DNA of 64,000 nucleotides. It comes from Octopus vulgaris (lineage: Eukaryota). This document shows positions 345 to 45,874 of the stretch, one piece after another. The stretch spans positions 55,862,001-55,926,000 of the forward strand of contig OX597825.1 in assembly GCA_951406725.2 (NCBI GenBank), in the 5' to 3' direction. The stretch's first letter is position 1, and every line of letters starts with the position of its first letter. The position numbers and the translations under genes are program-made. The notes below the pieces were generated by a model, which did no database searches, was not told the origin of the DNA, and saw nothing but the letters and a program-made list of their open reading frames with translations.

Positions 345-1634
345 CGAGGGGCGTTCAATAAGTAATGCCTCTGACCCACTTGCCGTTGATTGATCTAGCT
401 GAGATTTTGCATGTGTAATTATTTATATCTCTATAGATTAAGTAGCAAATTACAGCTCCGAACTAATAGTGGTTTCTGATTTACATGTGTTTGAAATGAG
501 TCAAGTGGGAAATGGAGCCTGTTGAGTGTCGAGCAGTGATCCGGTTTTTGTATTTGAAAGGACGCACACCACAGGAGACTTTTGATGAAATGAAAATAAC
601 TTATGGTGATGATGCCCCATCATATGACCTTGTAAAACGCTGGCATCGTGAATTCAAACATGGTCGGAACTCTGTGGAAACAGCTCCCAGATCTGGTCGC
701 ACCCCTTCTGCCATTGATGAGGTATCTGTCCGTCAAGTTGAGGCTGCCATTTTGGAAGATGGACGCATAACTATTCGCCAAATAGCCCATGAGGTCAAGA
801 TTAGTACCGGGTCTGTGGAAACTATCATTCATGACCATTTGCATATGCAAAAGGTGTCTGCCAGAGGGATTCCCAGGTTGCTCACACTTTTCCTGAAACA
901 AGAACGCGTCGAGTGCTCGAGGATGAATTTAGGGATGTGCCAAGAAGATGAGTCAAAATTTTTCAAAAGACTGATTACACAGGATGAGACCTGGGTCCTT
1001 CACCATGATCCAGAGACCAAAGCCCAGTCAATGCAGTGGAAGCACCATGCCTCACCTCCTCCAAAGAAGGCAAGGGTGCAGCCCTCCGCTGGCAAGGTCA
1101 TGCTCAGTCTTCTGGGACCAGGGCGGAGTAGTGATGACAGATTTCCTGGCAAAGGGTACCACAATTACAGGAGCCTATCATGCTTCACTTTTGAGGAAAT
1201 TAAGAGAAGCTATCAAAACCAAGAGGCGGGGCAAGATCAGCAAAGGCATCCTCCTCCTGCAGGACAACGCTCCGGTCCACAACTCGCGTGTCGCCAGATC
1301 AGAAGCACAGGCGTGCGGCTATGAACACTTCCCCCATCCCCCTACTCTCCTGAGATTGCACCCTCAGATTTTCACCTCTTCCCAGCCATGAAGTTGTTTT
1401 TGAAAGGAAAGCGTTTCCCAGATGATGCAGCCTTGATTTCTGAAGTCACGTAGTGGTTGGAGGACCAAGCTGGGGTCTTCTATGAAAACGGTCTCCAGAG
1501 CTGTATCAAACGATGGGAGAAATGCGTAACTCTGGGTTGTTCCTATGCTGAAAAAGACTAATACCTGTGCCAAGTTTCGTTGCTCTACTGCTATGGGAAG
1601 TGGGTCAGGGGCATTACTTATTGAACGCCCCTCG
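345..1634 (+). mobile_element. Full-length mariner DNA transposon (1290 bp)
   Basis: 37-bp TIRs at 345-381 and 1598-1634 (CGAGGGGCGTTCAATAAGTAATGCC...; 1 mismatch), TA on both sides (343-344, 1635-1636), internal transposase. Confidence 0.97.
512..1561 (+). pseudogene. Mariner transposase, disrupted
   Basis: HTH N-terminus (PRSGRT), GIPRLL (WVPRLL-like), TQDETW, LLQDNAPVH, HPP...SDFHLF. Frameshifts near 1105 and 1345, TAG at 1451, natural stop TAA at 1559-1561. Confidence 0.93.
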
Positions 1635-1799
1635 TACAGTATTAAAGTTTCAATGCTTATGAAACTGTTTTCACGGCTAGAAAATGTGAAAAACGCATCA
1701 TATTGTTGGAATATCTTTTATTGAAATTAACAACATCAATGTGAGGAATGAGCTTGGCGCTGACAAAGTACTTCAAGCAGTTCATCTAAGTGAGCTGGT

Positions 1800-1861
<62 letters not shown>

Positions 1862-2067
1862 TCATTTAAAGATAGTAGGCCCCTTCATCTCACCATATAA
1901 AAAAGAATTTTTATTTTAAATACCTACTGTTTTTTTTTATATGGTGAGATGAAGGGGGCCTACTATCTCTAAATTAAAATATAGATTTCTTCATTGAGAA
2001 TAATTTGAACCTCTGTTATGCCGAATTTTTATTCCCTAAAAAATAAAATTTATATATATATATATAT

Positions 2068-2245
2068 AAAGGGAAAGTTTACGAAAATAAACAAAAGACG
2101 AAGGCAGGTGGAGTACAAACAAACAAATGTATTAGTATAGCGCTCAGGAATAGAAAAAGTCTTTTACGTTTCGAGCCTACGCTCTTCGACAGAAAGATAC
2201 ACAGAAAAAAAACAAGGAGCGAAAAAAATGCGTGTAGGAGCTTAT
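2068..2245 (-). mobile_element. Penelope-like pseudo-LTR fragment
   Basis: Reverse strand reads GAAGAGCGTAGGCTCGAAACGT; homologous to the copies near 12290 and 17285. Confidence 0.6.
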
Positions 2246-2259
2246 ATATATATGGGTAT

Positions 2260-2483
2260 ATTTATGTGTGTTTGTTACTATGTCAGTGTTTGTATGCCCA
2301 CCATCACTTGACAACAGATGGCAGTGTGTTTATGGCCCTGCAACTTAGTGGTTCGGCAAAAGTGACCGATAGAATAAGTACTAGGCTTACAAAGAATAAA
2401 GTCCTGGGGTTGATTTCTTCGACTAAAACCCTTTCTTCGACTCCAGCCGCAGTCAAATGAGTGGAACAAAATCAGAATTAAAG
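2260..2483 (+). mobile_element. SINE family A, 3' half
   Basis: CACTTGACAAC...GGTTCGGCAAAAG.GACCGATAGAATAAGTACTAGGCTTACAAAGAATAA...CCGCAGTCAAATGA, shared with the full copy at 47596-47995. Confidence 0.85.
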
Positions 2484-2517
2484 AACACACACACACACAC
2501 GCGTACACACACACACG

Positions 2518-2558
<41 letters not shown>

Positions 2559-3062
2559 CGACACACGCTTTTATCGATTCATGCACACATTCACACACAC
2601 ATATGTATGTGGGTATGTATGTGTGTGCAAGAGGGGGAGATAGAGGGAGAGGGAGAGGGAGTGTGTGTGTGTGTGTATGTGTGTGTGTATGCATGCATGT
2701 ATGTGTAGTAGTATGTGGACACGTGGAAAATAAACTGAAATGGTAGCCATTGACTCGTGATTTCAAATCCCACCGTAGATGTTGCTGTATGCCCCGAAGC
2801 TCACTGTATAACCTAATTTGCTTAGGGCTTCCTATCTAATTAAAAGCAAATTATGACTGAATGACAATGTTTGACACTGGGTTTATATGTATGCATGTAT
2901 GTGTACGTGTGTGTGTGTGTGTGTGTGTGAGCGAGCGCGTGTGTATGTGCGTATGTGTGTGCCTATGGGCATGTGTGTGCGTTCGTGTGTGTTGTTATGT
3001 ATTTGTAACGTGTGAAAGCCCGTGAGTGCTTCTGTGTGTCTATGCGTACATGTATATGTATT

Positions 3063-3093
<31 letters not shown>

Positions 3094-3204
3094 GTGTACG
3101 TAATGTGTTGTATTTAATTATTCTACTGCTTTTTTATGCACCCTAATTAGTTTCTTTCATCAACGCCGTGCACCGCCTTCACCAACCCGTTTTACCTCCT
3201 TTAC

Positions 3205-3346
3205 AATTATTGTTATTATTATTATTATTATCATTATTATTGTCATTATTGTTGTTGTTGTTTTTGGTTTGATCTCTGTGCTGCTGCTCATGATGCTGAT
3301 GCTGATGATGATAACGTTTTTTGTTGTGGCTGTGATTATTGTTTTT

Positions 3347-3399
<53 letters not shown>

Positions 3400-3552
3400 T
3401 CATCACCATTATCATCATTTCATTATTGTGGCAAATAAAAGAAATTCTTCCCTTCCTCCACCTCCTTCTCTTCTTTATCGTCACCATCATTAGTATTACG
3501 AATATCTTTATCATCCTCATCCTCATCATCATCGTCATCGTCATCGTCGTTG

Positions 3553-3608
<56 letters not shown>

Positions 3609-4040
3609 ATTATTATTTAATATTATTATTATACATATGGTTATCAATGTTATCTCGGCTAGCATCACCAACATCACTACCATCTGCTGCCCCCTTTGTC
3701 ATCGTCAACCACCCCTCCATCCTTCGTCACCTCATCATCATCATCATCATCATCACTATCTTCGCAATCAACATCAATAGTATCTTGCTTAGCGTAATCA
3801 TGATGAGCATTATGGTCGTAGTGAAGAAAGCGAAGATTGCTCTCCCTCACCACCAACATCAACACCATCACCACCACTGCTAAAACCAGCACTAACATTA
3901 TCTCTCCCATCTCCCTTTTTCTACGATAACCACCACCACCACCACCACCACCACCACCGCAACCAACTACCATCATCACCTCCATCATCATTGCTATCAC
4001 CACAACAATCACCACTAGCATATTGATGGCCACCACCACA
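3205..4040. repeat. Compound (ATT)n/(CAT)n/(CAC)n microsatellite field
   Basis: Runs visible directly in the sequence. Confidence 0.9.
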
Positions 4041-4289
4041 TATTTCTATGAAACATTCGACCTGGCAGAGATAACAGCGAAGTTCTTGAACAAACCACGC
4101 ACAGCCGTCTCAAATATGGAAGGACAATATAGTCTATGGTGTACAAAACGGCGGGATGGTTATAGTAAGAAGTACTTTGATCACAAATCATGCACCTTAG
4201 AGCTTGATCCTGGGCTAAGCAACAGGGTCCTACACTTAAATGTCATCGTTTCTGTCGTCTAGCAACGCAAACGCCGCAGCCAATGTTGA

Positions 4290-4682
4290 ACAATCATCAT
4301 CGTCGTCATCTTCATCAACATCATCATCGTCGTCATCTTCATCAACATCATCATCGTCGTCATCGTCGTCATTATTATCATAATCATCATCATCATCATC
4401 ATAATCATCGCCATCGTCATCATCGTCGGCATCGTCATCATCTCCATCACCACCATCATCATCATCTTCACCACCATCACCACCACCAACGCCACCAACG
4501 CCATCACCACCACCAACAACACCATCACCACCAACACCATCATCATCATCATCATCGTCGTAGTTGTCAAAAACATCATCATCATGGTCATTGTCATCAT
4601 CATCATCATCACTGTCATTATCATCATCATCATCGCCAGCGTAATCATCGTCGGCATCGTCATTATCTCTACCACCACTACC

Positions 4683-14259: not shown

Positions 14260-14295
<36 letters not shown>

Positions 14296-15143
14296 TTATA
14301 TATATAAAACTGAGAATATGTGTGTGTCTGTCTGTCTGTCTGTCTGTGTGTTTCCCTAAAACTACACAACCAATTTCATTCAAATTTTACACCTGCCTTA
14401 CTTAGGGTCCGGGGAGTATCATCGGCAAAAATTTTTTTTAATTTTTTGCCTAGGGCAAGCCCACAGCAATATCATATCTTCTCCACTACGATTCCCTAAA
14501 ACATGAGAACTACACAACCAATTTCATTCAAATTTTACACATGCCTTACTTAGGGTCCACGTAGTTTCATGGGCAAAAAAAATGTTCAACTTCTTGCCTA
14601 GAGCGAGCCCATAGCAATATCATATCTTCTCCACTATTTCAGTATTACGTGTTAAAAGTGAAACAAAAACATTTCTCTATTTTATGTCAGATACTTTCAC
14701 TTTAACAATGAAAATAATAATAACAATTGAATTATACGTAGTAAGTAATAATTAAAATCAGACTAAAGTATAATATAATCGTAACATAACAAAAGTAGAA
14801 ATAGCAATTGGTATAAAATTACATCAATGACTTGAACTTGAATAAGTGGTTTCACATGAATGGGAATAAATTAAAAATAAAATTAGCGTGCAGAAATGGA
14901 ATAGTCCAGATGGATAATAAAACATTAAATTAAAGAAAAGACTATTGTCTATAAAGTATACAATGTAGAGAAAAAAGGTCGCGTTTTTTTGCGCTCTGTA
15001 AAATTCGGTTAAAAAAGAAAAAACAACAAAAAGTGAATTGTGGTTGCGGAATTGGAACGTCGGTTGGTGCGGTTTCGCGTCGCACTGGTTCTGTGCGTCG
15101 CACGTTTTCTGTTCGGGAGGCCGTTTTTCGGTCTGAGGCGACT

Positions 15144-16508
15144 ATGAGCCGCCTCTACCAAACGGATGAGATGGAAGGGAGAAATTTCTCTGAAAATTCG
15201 TCGACATCTGAGGAGGAGTTGGCGGTGAAAAAAATGGAAAGCACCTATGCAGGTATAACGAAGAAGTCAACAGAAAAAGAGATAGACCTGGCTAAGTTGA
15301 CGGACTTCCAGGAGTTCATGAAGGAGGAGGAGAACGGAGAGGTTGAGCTGTTGCCTCTAGCAGGGCGCGGAGACTGGTTCCATCGTAGAACCATTAAATA
15401 TAAAGTATTTATGAATGGAGGTAGAAAAATGGAAGTGATTAACATGGAAGCAATTGAAGAGGCTTTCAAACGGACAGGAGAAGAAATTGTGTACATGACA
15501 AAAGGATTAGAATATGGAACCATAACGGTACAATTTAAAAGTGAGAAAGCAGCCAGGAATATAGCAGCCAAGGTGGTGAGTACAGAAAAGTTTTACTTGT
15601 TCCCCTCGTATTTGAATAGAAGGACCACCAGAATTAGGGTGGAAGGAATACCTCCACACCTAGAGGGCGAATTAATAACGGCTGCGGTTATCAAAGGAAA
15701 TGAAGATAAAGTGGACATCCTCCACGCCATTATGAAATATGAAGGCGTGAGAGGTGCCACACTAGTAATGAACATACAGACGGAGGCGGAAGTTATAGAA
15801 AAGCTTACGGACAGTATAAAAACTGGAAATATTATTATGAGAGTGTGGGTGGAGGGTAGGGCGCCCAGGTGCTACAAGTGTGGCATGAGGGGTCACATAA
15901 GAGCCTACTGCCCTCCACCACTAAAGGAAAAAGAAAAGGAAATCGTCGCGGAAGCCCCAAAAGAGGAAGAAACCAAAGAGAACCAAAGGGAAAAAGAAAC
16001 GACAGAAGAAGAGGAGATGCAACAAGAGTGGGAAGAAGGAAGAAAAAAGAGAAAAAGAAAGAAAAAGAAAAACTGTGCGAAGCCCCAACCCACCCCAACA
16101 CCACCCGCACCCTCTGAATCCCACCCTTCCCCTGCAGACAGTGAACCCACCCGCTCCCCTCCAACAAGAAAACAAAAGAAAAATAACAATACAGACAGAC
16201 AAGAGTTTGAAAACGAACCCAGGCCGAACATTTATATTGTGACTGAACAGAAAGAGGTTGAAAGGGTAATGGAGGAGTATGAATGGTATGAAATGGATGG
16301 GACCAGATATGCAGTGCTGGAAAAGAAGAATATAGATGAGTTTGTGTTGAGGTGTGAAAGGGAGAATTGGGAGGTGAAAGATACAAGAATGAGCGATGAA
16401 TTCGTGGAATATATGGAGGACAGTTTCGGAGTAAGAATGGATATGGATGGTCTTCGTATTGGGAATGAACATTCAGGTGACAGTGAAAACAAAAGGACAG
16501 GTAAGTGA
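15144..16508 (+). CDS. Gag-like / non-LTR retrotransposon ORF1p (L1/Tx1-like) with CCHC zinc knuckle, 454 aa
   Basis: Uninterrupted ORF from ATG 15144. STYAGIT N-terminal motif, RRM-like RIRVEGIPP region, CYKCGMRGHIRAYC (CX2CX4HX4C) at 15870-15911, acidic/basic/Pro-rich tail, CpG-rich leader at ~14970-15143. Confidence 0.85.
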   Translation: MSRLYQTDEMEGRNFSENSSTSEEELAVKKMESTYAGITKKSTEKEIDLAKLTDFQEFMKEEENGEVELLPLAGRGDWFHRRTIKYKVFMNGGRKMEVINMEAIEEAFKRTGEEIVYMTKGLEYGTITVQFKSEKAARNIAAKVVSTEKFYLFPSYLNRRTTRIRVEGIPPHLEGELITAAVIKGNEDKVDILHAIMKYEGVRGATLVMNIQTEAEVIEKLTDSIKTGNIIMRVWVEGRAPRCYKCGMRGHIRAYCPPPLKEKEKEIVAEAPKEEETKENQREKETTEEEEMQQEWEEGRKKRKRKKKKNCAKPQPTPTPPAPSESHPSPADSEPTRSPPTRKQKKNNNTDRQEFENEPRPNIYIVTEQKEVERVMEEYEWYEMDGTRYAVLEKKNIDEFVLRCERENWEVKDTRMSDEFVEYMEDSFGVRMDMDGLRIGNEHSGDSENKRTGK

Positions 16509-16655
16509 TGCTGGCGGAGGGGGCCGTTAGCATCGCTTTCATATTATCATTTTTTCATTTTCATTTGCTCATAAATTTAATCATATTGTTCTATGTCCCC
16601 CATGTTTTGTTATGTCCGCCATTCTTCGTAGCCCCTGGTGGGTAATAAAGAAATA

Positions 16656-16965
16656 ACATGGAGGAAAGCACCTTCGAAAAGTGTCTTGGTGCGACTATGA
16701 AAGATATCTAATCAGAGGCGGTAAATTTTCCTCAATAGAAGCAAGGTTCGAGTCAACGGAGCGTGCAAGGGAGTACTCGACTCGAACTTGCAAAGTGGAA
16801 ATATTTTATTTTTACCTCTATATCTGGGACGTAGGACGTCCCGGAAAAAAATTAAAAATGCACCCCCCCCCCAGAAGTAGAGGTAGGCTGGAATGTAGCC
16901 ACACTTCTATACAAGAGGGAGGACAAGATACAATTGATCGAAATTACAACAGACGGGCTAACAAT
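16656..16965 (+). pseudogene. Frameshifted fragment of a paralogous ORF1
   Basis: NMEESTFEK..YLIRGGKFSSIEARFESTERAREY..LYLGRRTSR..PEVEVGWNVATLLYKREDKIQLI aligns by eye with NMEAIEEAF..YMTKGLEYGTITVQFKSEKAARNI..SYLNRRTTR..PHLEGELITAAVIKGNEDKVDIL. Confidence 0.7.
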
Positions 16966-17157
16966 TCCAGTCTGTTATATATGTTGAGTATTGTTATCAC
17001 TAACGATATCAAGATATAACTTTGTATTTTGTATCTTATGTGTAGATGTATATATATATATATATATATATGTACATGTAATATGTACACATATATATAT
17101 ACACATATATACATGCACTAGCATTATGAACCGGCAACGATGGGTCTTTAATGCTGG

Positions 17158-17193
<36 letters not shown>

Positions 17194-35700: not shown

Positions 35701-38350
35701 TAGATAAACTTAGATGTGTTTCGACCAATGATTGGTACAGGCCATGTCTAACTTAATAGCACCACCTGATAGGATTATTTGAATCCTGTTTAAGTCAAGT
35801 TTTGCTTATGGTCCATTCAAGTAGTGAGTTTTTGTTGGGTGAGTTGTATCCAATTATGGGTGGCTTATCTGGTATTCCTTGAAGGAATCTATCCAGACTC
35901 CGTTTAAAGTTGATGGGATCCTGTTCCTCTTTGATCTCTTTCGGGACAATGTTTAATAGGGCAGGGCCTGTTGAGGAAAATAAATTATGTTGTAGTGTAT
36001 ATGTATGCTGTGATCTTGAATTGGGCAGGGAACGTATGGCCCGTGGTCCCAGTCTTGGATGAACCTTGAAGCTAATGTTCAGGTCATTTGGGCAAATTTG
36101 GCGGTATATTCTCCACATCGTACAAATGATGTACCGCTCACGGCGACGCTGGAGAGAGTAGAGTTTCAAGGCTTTAAGGCGATCCCAATAATCGAGAGCA
36201 GTCATGCCTTCAATTCGTTTAGTGAGTGCTCTCTGGGGTGATTCAATCCTCGAGATGTTTTGTCTTGTATGGGGAGACCACAGTGGACAGCAGTATTCGA
36301 GGTGTGGCCGTACAAAGGAGGAGAAAAGTGGTATGATGACACCTTGTTCTCTGGACCGGAAAGTTCTTAAGATCCAGGAACTCATCCTACGAGCTATATC
36401 GACCTTCTTGTTGATGTGTGTACTCCAACTGAGATCGTCATCAACAATTACACCTAGGCCTCTGATGTTGTTAGAGGCTGTGAGCGGTTCCCCTGAAGGA
36501 AGAGAGTATGGCTGTTTTAGTGAGGAATTTCTTCCAAAATGCATCAGCTCAAATTTTCCCTCGTTCAGTTGCATTTTGTTTCTGTCTGCCCATTGACTCA
36601 CAGCATATAGATCAGACTGGAGTTGAGTTCGGTCTGCTTCTTCATTGACGATTTGCTGGAGCTTGGTGTCATCAGCAAATATTTTCACTTTGCAGTAATG
36701 TACGACACTGGAAAGGTCGTTTATGTAGATTATGAAGAGTAGCGGACCCAAGACAGTCCCCTGGGGGACACCGCTGGTGACTTTTGCTGGGCTTGAGTGG
36801 ACTCCATCAACTACAACATGTTGTGTTCTATTCGCCAGGAAATACTTGATCCAGTGTAGAACTTTTCCACGGATTCCAACATTTGCCAATTTTGAGAGTA
36901 GGATATTATGGTCTACCCTGTTGAACGCTTTACTGAAGTCAAGATATATGACATCAGAGTTCGAACCTGTTCCCAAGGCTTTGAGTACATCTTCAATGTG
37001 GTGAAAGAGCTGTGTTAGACAGTCCCTGCCACAGCGAAAGCCATGCTGATTTGCATTTAGGAGTTTCTGGGTCTCCAGGAAGTCAGCCATCCTTGATCTA
37101 AACACTCTTTCAAACATTTTGATGATGTGGGAGGTGAGTGAGATTGGGCGATAGTTGAGTGCGAGGGATCTGTTTCCCTGTTTGAAAACCGGGATGACTG
37201 ACTGGGATAGAAAGTGTTTCGGTATATAACCTGCATCTAACGAATTTCTCCAGAGGTTGGTCAGAGGGACTGCAAGTTGGTGTCTACATTCCTTCAGGAC
37301 ACTAGCGGGGAATCTATCAGGGCCTACAGCAGAGTAGTATTTGACCTCATTTATTGCTGCTATGATGTCAGCGGCAGTGAAGGTTATGTCCGAGATTTTA
37401 TGTTGAGAGTCAACTTCGTTCGCTTCTCTAACGTCAATATCAGTGGGAACACTAAAGACAGAGCAGTATTTCTGTCATTTCTTTAGCATCGTGTTGGGGA
37501 ATGCTGTTATCATCAATCAATGGCCCAATGGGTGAGACAGTGGTTCTATGCTTATTTGCATAGGAATAGAACACTTTTGGGTTCTGTTTGATGTTTTTGA
37601 TTACCCACTGTTCCTCCGCAGCTCTTTGATTTTCAATGGAGGTTTTCATGTCGTTCTGCAGATGAAGTTTTTCCAGCTCTAGCCTTTTCATTGTTGTTGA
37701 ATGTGGATGTTGTATGTGGGAATATTTTAATTGGTTAATTTTTTTGTTGAGTCTTTTGATGCGCCTGATTAGTGTTTTTTTTCTTTTTAGGGAGCCGATT
37801 TCTGTTTGTGTTAGTAGATTTCGTGGGAGCGTGTTTAAAGCATGTATATGTGACAATGTTTTCAAAGTGCTGCCATGCGGTCTCAATATGGGTGGAATTA
37901 AGAGTAAAAGACCAGTCGATGAAAGACAGATCTTTTCTGATTGCTCCCCAGTCCGCTTTGTGGAAGTTTATGTTATCAAATGAGTGCCATGGAGTGGGAT
38001 TGGCTGGTTTGGTTTTTATATGTCGGGAATTGAAATTGCAGAGTACCATGTCGTGGTCTGAGAGGAGAGTTTTTTTCAACTGAAATACTGTGAATGAAGC
38101 TAGAGTGATTGGTCAATACCAGATCCAAGATCGTTTTATTCTGTCTCGTTGGTTCGAGCACTAGCTGAGTCAGGAAGTATTCATCCATTAGATTAAAGAG
38201 CAGTTCTGCTGCTGCTCTATCTGATGTAGAGCACTTGCCTAACTTCAGAGTATTTGTGGGCCAGTTCACATGAGGGAGGTTAAAATCACCCATCACTAGT
38301 ATGTTTCCGGAGTGGTACTTCCGAAGGAAGGACTTGACTTTGCTAAGGCA
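35696..38350 (-). mobile_element. CR1/L2-group LINE, 5'-truncated, ORF2 frameshifted upstream of RT
   Basis: APE C-terminus (MGDFNLPHVNW, ILDLVLTN, LSDH), NYRPISLTS, RT domain, 3' UTR and (TCTAAGTTTA)n tail. Confidence 0.95.
35795..37117 (-). pseudogene. LINE ORF2 reverse transcriptase region (440-aa open segment)
   Basis: QHGFR, IYLDFSKAF, SGVPQGTVLGPLLFIIYINDL, FADDTK, VRPHLEYCCPLWSP, LYSLQRRRER. Confidence 0.93.
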
Positions 38351-38520
38351 CTCTTAGAGGTGCTTGGGGAGGCCTATAAATACCAACAATGATTATGTCC
38401 TTGGCCTTGCTGAATAGTGATACAGATTCACAATAGCCATTGGAAAATATGTCCTTGGCATCAAGTGAGACATACATACATGTAGATATATATATCTATC
38501 TATGTATATATATATAAATG

Positions 38521-44655: not shown

Positions 44656-44733
<78 letters not shown>

Positions 44734-45843
44734 TAGCATTAAAGACCCGTCGTTGCCGGGTCATAGCGCTAGTGCATGTATATATGTATATATATATGCG
44801 TACATATTACATGTACATCTATATATATACATCTACACATAAAATACAAAATACAAAGTTATATCTTGATATCGCTAGTGATAACAATACTCAAAATATA
44901 TAACAGACTGGAATTGTTAGCCCGTCTCTTGTAATTTCGATCAATTGTATCTTGTCCTCCCTCTTGTATAGAAGTGTGGCTACAATCCGACAGCTGCAGC
45001 GAAATTCATTTTTGAACTTTCTTCTATCGAAGACATTTTAACAAAAATACTTCCGTGTAAACGTTGAAAATATTGTCAACTTCCCCAAACAGGGACACAA
45101 TTCAATTTTTAAACAATAACCAAAGCTCCTTCTCCCAAAGGGGGAAGGGTTACGGTTTACAATTATTTAACAAATGCAACACAACAACGCTTCCCTTACG
45201 AGGAACCAACAAACGTGATAACAATGGTTAAACAGAAATAATAATAACAACAAACCTTATGGTAAACCAAAAAGCAGTACTCTGTTGAAGCTATAGGCCT
45301 TTACGAATCAGAAATAAACTAACAACGGTACTCAGTAGAATGCTTAATGCTAGCTAATTAGCAAATAATCTAATGTAAAAGCCGTGCACACCTCTATTCA
45401 TTTCTGCACTTAAATTTTATTTTTTATTTATTCCCATTCATGTGAAACCACTGATTCAAGTTCAAGTCATTGATGCAGTTTTATACCAATTGCTATTTTT
45501 ACTCTTGTTATGTTACGATAATATTATACTTTAGTTTGATTTTAATTAATACTTACTACATATAATTCAATTGTTATTATTATTTTTATTGTTAAAGTGA
45601 AAGTATCTGACATAAAATAGAGAAATGTTTTTGTTTTACTTTTAACACGTAATACTAAAATAGTGGAGAAGATATGACATTGCTATGGGCTCGCTCTAGG
45701 CAAGAAGTTGAACATATTTTTCCCATGAAACTACATGGACCCTAAGTAAGGCATGTGTAAAATTTGAATGAAATTGGTTGTGTAGTTCTCAAGTTTTAAG
45801 GAAACACACAGACAGACAGACACACAGACACACATTCTCAAAG

Positions 45844-45874
<31 letters not shown>

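Follow-up and report, generated by a model that had tools for sequence, protein, structure and literature searches.

The 1678-bp insert carried by a Helitron in the window, i.e., the whole 64,000-nt stretch of Octopus vulgaris DNA analyzed here (contig OX597825.1, positions 55,862,001 to 55,926,000), is interpreted, with a probability of roughly 0.85, as an ORF1-only half-LINE that was placed at one fixed Helitron site via TPRT with the enzyme of an L1/Tx1-type LINE. This reading was drawn from the occurrence of empty and filled forms of the same Helitron, the fixed 3' junction, a 3' tail common to the inserted cassettes and the LINE, an intact ORF2, and the finding that the cassettes are younger than their hosts. 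Two other elements of the window were recognized by motifs: a broken ORF at 500-1391 (+), which presumably derives from a mariner-like transposase, and a broken ORF2 at 35795-38353 (-) with a 559-aa open RT-like frame, which we take to be LINE-like.

The Helitron host and the boundaries of its insert

The host at 14293-17157 (+) belongs to the non-autonomous Helitrons: its ends are of the TC and hairpin-CTRR types, it lies between A and T, and it holds one inserted cassette; its empty form measures about 1.2 kb. These Helitron-type ends bore out the initial annotation, in which the same interval had been assigned to a Helitron. The 5' terminus (14293-14318, +) begins with TC after an A, and the 3' terminus (17128-17157, +) consists of a hairpin and a CTGG end before a T. 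Among the family members, TC was preceded by A at 37 of 40 script-found 5' ends and CTRG was followed by T at all 67 3' ends, the latter being collected by a pattern search that itself requires CTRG. The subterminal hairpin GACCCG..CGGGTC is located about 11 nt from the 3' end in most copies, with two changes from this usual form in the window copy.

A copy of a sister subfamily, having the same ends and lacking the landing site of the insert, was found at 44733-45844 (-), and its 405-bp interior (44989-45393, -) replaces most of the ORF1 fragment described below. On the 5' side, 14492-14904 matched 45803-45394 at 94% over 413 bp, with a second, repeat-related match at the 5' end (81%, 224 columns); on the 3' side, 16890-17191 matched from 44988 downward at 92%. 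It had been claimed that the two copies share about 600 bp at the 5' end and about 270 bp at the 3' end. Both ends are indeed common to the copies, in opposite orientation, but the lengths were off: the 612 bp of the window copy have a counterpart of just about 450 bp in the sister, the window copy having an extra 148-bp direct repeat (two 129-nt units with a period of 148, 88% alike, at 14360-14636, +, just one of which occurs in the sister). The interior of the sister, given earlier as an unrelated stretch of about 400 bp, was likewise found to be different, but it is not an isolated case and marks another high-copy subfamily: a search with this interior returned 1558 candidates, 40 of which were scored, and 12 of 12 fetched loci had the same layout. 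A pattern search for its donor yielded one match, which was a longer Helitron and not a donor. The interior (44989-45393, -) is TG-rich and ends in the short frame MSSIEESSKMNFAAAV; this frame recalls ORF1 N-termini, and the sister interior may represent the 5' terminal part of another LINE.

Intact RepHel ORFs are present in the genome. Of the families represented at the 20 RepHel loci fetched, two terminate in a similar hairpin loop plus GCTAG, with termini similar, not identical, to those of the host, and no internal DNA match between the host Helitron and the intact RepHel families was detected in these 20 loci. At the locus L221 (C3:99.21 Mb), the reverse strand contains, about 1136-4650 from its end, the 5' part of the host family together with a sister-type interior, and this interior adjoins a broken RepHel coding region with 36-60% identity to the intact RepHel ORFs. 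At three further loci (L044, L055, and L059), Helitron copies are arranged wholly or partly in tandem, a 3' end being followed by another whole or partial copy.

The interior of the window copy had been described as a single insert of about 2 kb spanning 14905-16890. Instead, it was resolved into 73 bp of host sequence (14905-14977), the insert (14978-16655), and 234 bp of host sequence (16656-16889), and position 14905 turned out to be a boundary between Helitron subfamilies rather than an insertion junction. The limits of the insert follow from the empty copies, which join 14977 to 16656 with about 11 extra bases between them. A search with 16657-17040 as the query returned 2145 candidates, 40 of which were scored; 23 of 29 non-self host loci were empty and the other six carried a cassette tail, and 21 of the 23 empty loci passed the script pattern used for the distance comparison. 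Exact empty sites numbered 321 in the genome, and the empty joint was also recovered in contigs of three of four public runs.

The filled 3' junction is not confined to the window, which would have indicated a one-off nested insertion; 15 exact copies of it were found. Five new filled-junction loci were fetched, three with cassette A and two with a B-like cassette. At L224 and L225, a lone B-like cassette (91% identical in amino acids) fills the site, and its 3' junction is that of A. The 5' junction was compared at 14 loci where A comes first: it was the same as in the window at 10, differed by one base at one, and clearly differed at three. At A there is neither a poly(A) tail nor a target duplication, and 11 target bases are lost. 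For B, the 3' junction is displaced by one base relative to A and the LINE.

The site itself is embedded in a decayed ORF1 fragment of the host. Its 5' part (14920-14977, +), identified by a profile match in the empty copies, ends at the 5' insertion junction, and its 3' part (16656-16948, +) starts at the 3' junction with ACATGG and enters the portion that the two subfamilies have in common. When the empty Helitrons were searched with an ORF1-family profile, matches across the site reached up to 51 bits, as compared with 7.8 bits for the best of 300 shuffles; the match covers about 120 codons and is frameshifted. Since the fragment extends into the sister-shared part, it was likely present already in the ancestor from which both subfamilies derive, and the sister subfamily likely lost the landing site by replacement. 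This dead fragment of about 360 bp is likely the true Helitron capture, the intact gene having come later.

Cassette A, its relatives and the partner LINE

The insert, hereafter cassette A (14978-16655, +), is an ORF1-only non-autonomous LINE. As noted in the initial annotation, it contains an intact CCHC ORF: 15144-16508 (+) is open over 454 aa and includes the motif CX2CX4HX4C. The predicted protein comprises one or more RRM folds from about 15363, the CCHC knuckle at 15870-15911, and a charged low-complexity tail. Only about 150 bp of untranslated sequence separate the stop from the 3' junction, with no ORF2 and no RT in the cassette, and no long terminal repeats were found around it. The proposal that the product is ORF1-like also held, in that it is homologous to ORF1 of a complete LINE and is predicted to bind RNA. 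A Pfam search gave only a weak zf-CCHC match (E 0.09) and no L1 ORF1 match; RRM-like folds and the CCHC knuckle were seen instead. The predicted model of the core, built with 10 sequences, had a pLDDT of 75 and resembled tandem-RRM proteins (Foldseek E 8e-6, TM 0.27-0.39), and a structure match to an RRM protein gave Z 9.8 and an rmsd of 2.4 over 79 residues, the listed fold matches being RRM proteins. Taken at model level, cassette A is predicted to encode a LINE ORF1-type RNA-binding protein with RRM folds and a CCHC knuckle.

The ORF1 proteins are homologous across all cassette families and the LINE, with 24-60% identity to that of A and 33-36% between A and the LINE. Purifying selection on ORF1 was apparent between A and B (pN 0.235, pS 0.756), and close pairs showed dN/dS of 0.27-0.39. 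A genome search with the A ORF returned 547 candidates, of which the 40 scored were 96-100% identical; by a crude count, at least 16 of these 40 copies keep an ORF of at least 440 aa. Public runs presumed to be RNA contained the cassette as contigs only, which speaks neither for nor against its expression. Outside O. vulgaris, a sequence search for relatives of ORF1 gave only three partial matches, all named Octopus vulgaris, and the Atlas returned arthropod CCHC clusters and a ZCCHC3-like cluster at 0.90-0.93, which are to be taken as leads only.

All 40 A copies examined lie inside a Helitron or in cassette chains; host sequence was seen at 36 of these loci, and at the other four a cassette chain takes up the full 10 kb fetched. 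The upstream neighbor of A was the host (15 loci), B (22), D (1), C (1), or the LINE (1), and the downstream neighbor was the host (22), the LINE (8), C (8), B (1), or other DNA (1). The longest chains contain at least eight B copies, then A, then the LINE, all head-to-tail. Chains usually run B/D, A, C, LINE; the two exceptions, L113 and L114, contain more diverged A copies in the orders C-A-B and LINE-A-C. Distances among B copies gave no clear trend of age along the chains.

In the partner LINE, ORF1 is accompanied by an ORF2 that encodes endonuclease and RT domains, and at one locus ORF2 is intact as a 1131-aa endonuclease-RT ORF. Among proteins of solved structure, its best match is L1 ORF2p (E 2e-54, versus 3e-21 for R2); one distant match bears a transferred TX1 name, and Argonauta hians has a recorded relative with 50% identity. 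By its sequence relationships, the partner is a complete L1/Tx1-type LINE with an APE endonuclease and an RT closest to that of L1. Another L1/Tx1-type LINE, whose ORF2 is 50-64% identical to that of the partner, was observed just upstream of a filled Helitron (L099:820-4000). The 3' ends of 30 partner LINE copies abutted the Helitron site in 24 cases, the 5' end of another LINE in four, and other DNA in two, so that the preference for one sequence exceeds the threshold of PMC4494074, namely one sequence in more than 20% of flanks. For B, 30 3' ends were followed by a cassette 5' end (19), ACATGG (10), or AGATGG (1).

In the alignment, the 3' tail is common to A, B, C1, C2, D, and the LINE and ends in CCCC..GTGGGTAATAA; in cassette A it corresponds to 16585-16655 (+), with AATAAA at 16644-16649. 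A conserved RNA fold of this tail was considered and rejected, as the single-sequence folds of the six tails disagree.

Clusters of A-to-G changes on the sense strand, making up nearly all private changes, were detected in one of 40 A copies (22 of 26 changes) and two of 59 B copies (21 of 22 and 23 of 24), and in none of eight D and 10 ORF2 copies. A 5' G was found at 0 of 24 such sites, as against 172 of 582 background A; A-to-G changes without a 5' G fit ADAR editing. These clusters point to an RNA intermediate of the cassettes. At L119, the neighboring B (23/24) and A (22/26) both carry clusters, which hints that two-cassette RNAs can be inserted.

Route of spread of the cassettes

In the initial annotation, the composite was regarded as a rolling-circle vehicle that may spread the gene; that is, a Helitron would have captured an ORF1 gene once and dispersed it by rolling-circle transposition. 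In favor of such a route, the Helitron ends are intact in most filled loci, unlinked loci share identical junctions, the same single-A layout as in the window recurs at 12 of 40 loci, and the intact RepHel ORFs with similar ends exist. Rolling-circle spread should, however, leave host and cassette equally alike between loci. The A cassettes were a median of 1.63% apart (minimum 0.06%), values lowered by the choice of the 40 loci, out of 547 candidates, for likeness to the window cassette, whereas the filled hosts differed by a median of 3.78% in the 5' part (28 loci) and 6.13%, with a minimum of 2.70%, in the 3' part (30 loci). Among 32 filled loci, none of the 157 pairs with cassettes within 1% had host 3' parts within 2%, the lowest value being 3.3%, and no positive correlation between cassette and host distances was found (23 loci, rho -0.27, Mantel p 0.93). 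The window host differed from 22 others by 1.7-4.6% in the 5' part (one value 5.45%) and 4.0-8.6% in the 3' part, whereas the cassettes of the same loci differed from that of the window by as little as 0.12%; in the reciprocal host search, the best non-self match was 97% among the 40 scored. The cassettes are hence younger than their Helitron hosts and, being far more alike than these, likely landed independently by retrotransposition. Chain content, moreover, varies by locus, and the site also takes other cassettes and the LINE. Rolling-circle spread of the composite is thus largely ruled out as the main route by the host and cassette distances and is very improbable as the general explanation, although occasional events are possible. 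In the filled hosts, sequence downstream of the insertion was more diverged (6.1%) than upstream (3.8%); the empty set is biased by selection.

It has also to be considered that one or a few initial entries of the cassettes were followed by their spread between Helitron copies through DNA gene conversion or unequal exchange, which would build the chains as well. The identical 5' junctions fit this explanation, as do the 11 of 53 chain B copies that are closest to a same-chain neighbor and an internal host copy at L119 that shares a private deletion with its own upstream host; 40 of the 53 B copies, however, have their nearest relative at another locus, a count biased by the larger number of outside candidates, and the A-to-G clusters and the 3' junctions, fixed for all families and also at two off-target LINE sites, speak against it. 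We consider it only slightly less improbable than rolling-circle spread. A variant of the half-LINE explanation, in which the transposition unit is often a multi-cassette read-through RNA (B-A or A-C-LINE) whose order derives from master loci, is possible, if on the unlikely side. It accords with the nearly fixed order, with A never occurring beside A at the 40 loci, and with the clusters in both neighbors at L119; the AATAAA of each cassette, the lone A at 12 of 40 loci, and the chain at C3:114 Mb, where one of four B copies is edited, argue for separate units.

Under the preferred half-LINE explanation, the LINE endonuclease would nick the Helitron site, and ORF2 would bind the common 3' tail and copy the cassette RNA in trans, as suggested by the common tail, the common site, and the A-to-G clusters. 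The cassette 5' end would then be joined through short homology with a purine run immediately upstream, with loss of the 11 target bases. Identical 5' junctions would in this way reflect short-homology joining of purine runs in cassette and host, which the 5' joint variants with B and D (an added G or a shortened A run) fit; composite copying or gene conversion would also give the identity seen at 10 of 14 A-first loci. Each cassette 5' end would offer a similar CRYRT-like site, at which later cassettes would land upstream to form ordered chains, and the Helitron, as a carrier of the dead ORF1 fragment containing the site, would disperse the landing sites. Internal host copies had suggested a Helitron promoter with a reverse-transcribed cap G; this idea was dropped because the L119 copy matches the host of the same locus, a match that fits an alternative upstream nick.

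Comparison with known systems

A broader proposal, which we regard as tentative and rather doubtful, holds that a Helitron with a LINE target derived from a dead ORF1 acts as a self-multiplying landing pad, that a guild of ORF1-only elements rebuilds the target at each 5' end, that the chains form a dated record of ORF1, and that the diverged ORF1s are selected as interchangeable packaging partners of one ORF2. If true, the chains would grow at one end, like an integron or a CRISPR array made of retrotransposons. Under the preferred half-LINE explanation itself, three layers of parasitism come together, namely a rolling-circle multiplier of targets, a homing LINE, and several protein-coding half-LINEs using that LINE. 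Hundreds of natural sites, empty and filled, together with a young and intact LINE ORF2 that is site-specific, make it possible to test target recognition and what ORF1-only elements are for. The case also serves as a warning that an intact gene within a Helitron need not be captured cargo.

Helitrons capture gene fragments, and the octopus host resembles such elements in its gene fragment and its TC and hairpin-CTRR ends between A and T; it departs from them in that the sole apparent capture is the dead fragment of about 360 bp. For O. vulgaris, the repeat annotation of PMC13282606 includes active L1-Tx1 and Helitron families; the words "nested", "ORF1", and "target" are absent from its main text, and "nested" and "ORF1" from its single supplement. 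The combination described here was not found in print within the literature covered by title and abstract, Repbase entries and subscription journals lying outside that coverage.

The closest parallels are Tx1L in Tx1D of Xenopus, Tx1-Mar and SINEU in Mariner-N4_AMi, and Tx1-9_AMi in Harbinger (PMC4494074). There too, a Tx1-type LINE and a non-autonomous partner target a site in a DNA transposon and form tandem insertions, and hitchhiking of SINEU-3 in Mariner-N4 was considered and rejected by another test. The octopus system differs in that the target is a Helitron, the partners encode ORF1 instead of being SINEs, the chains mix up to four families, and A is associated with a small target deletion, not a duplication. 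HAL1 and Ag-Sponge (PMC5786205, PMC5753468) are ORF1-present non-autonomous LINEs that likewise have one ORF1, lack ORF2, and keep the 3' end of the parent LINE; unlike them, the octopus cassettes are site-specific and stacked, and several deep ORF1 lineages share one tail. Cassette A would work like HAL1 and is not a member, as it lacks the coiled-coil mammalian L1 ORF1p. With HeT-A and the other ORF1-only telomeric Jockey elements of Drosophila (PMC13534243), the octopus chains have in common head-to-tail arrays of ORF1-only and complete LINEs and ORF2 acting in trans, the last of which is presumed for octopus; they differ in the LINE group and in being intrachromosomal, bounded by Helitron ends, and present at many loci. 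The parts are thus known, from Tx1 elements in DNA transposons, HAL1, and HeT-A, and it is their combination that did not turn up in the literature covered.
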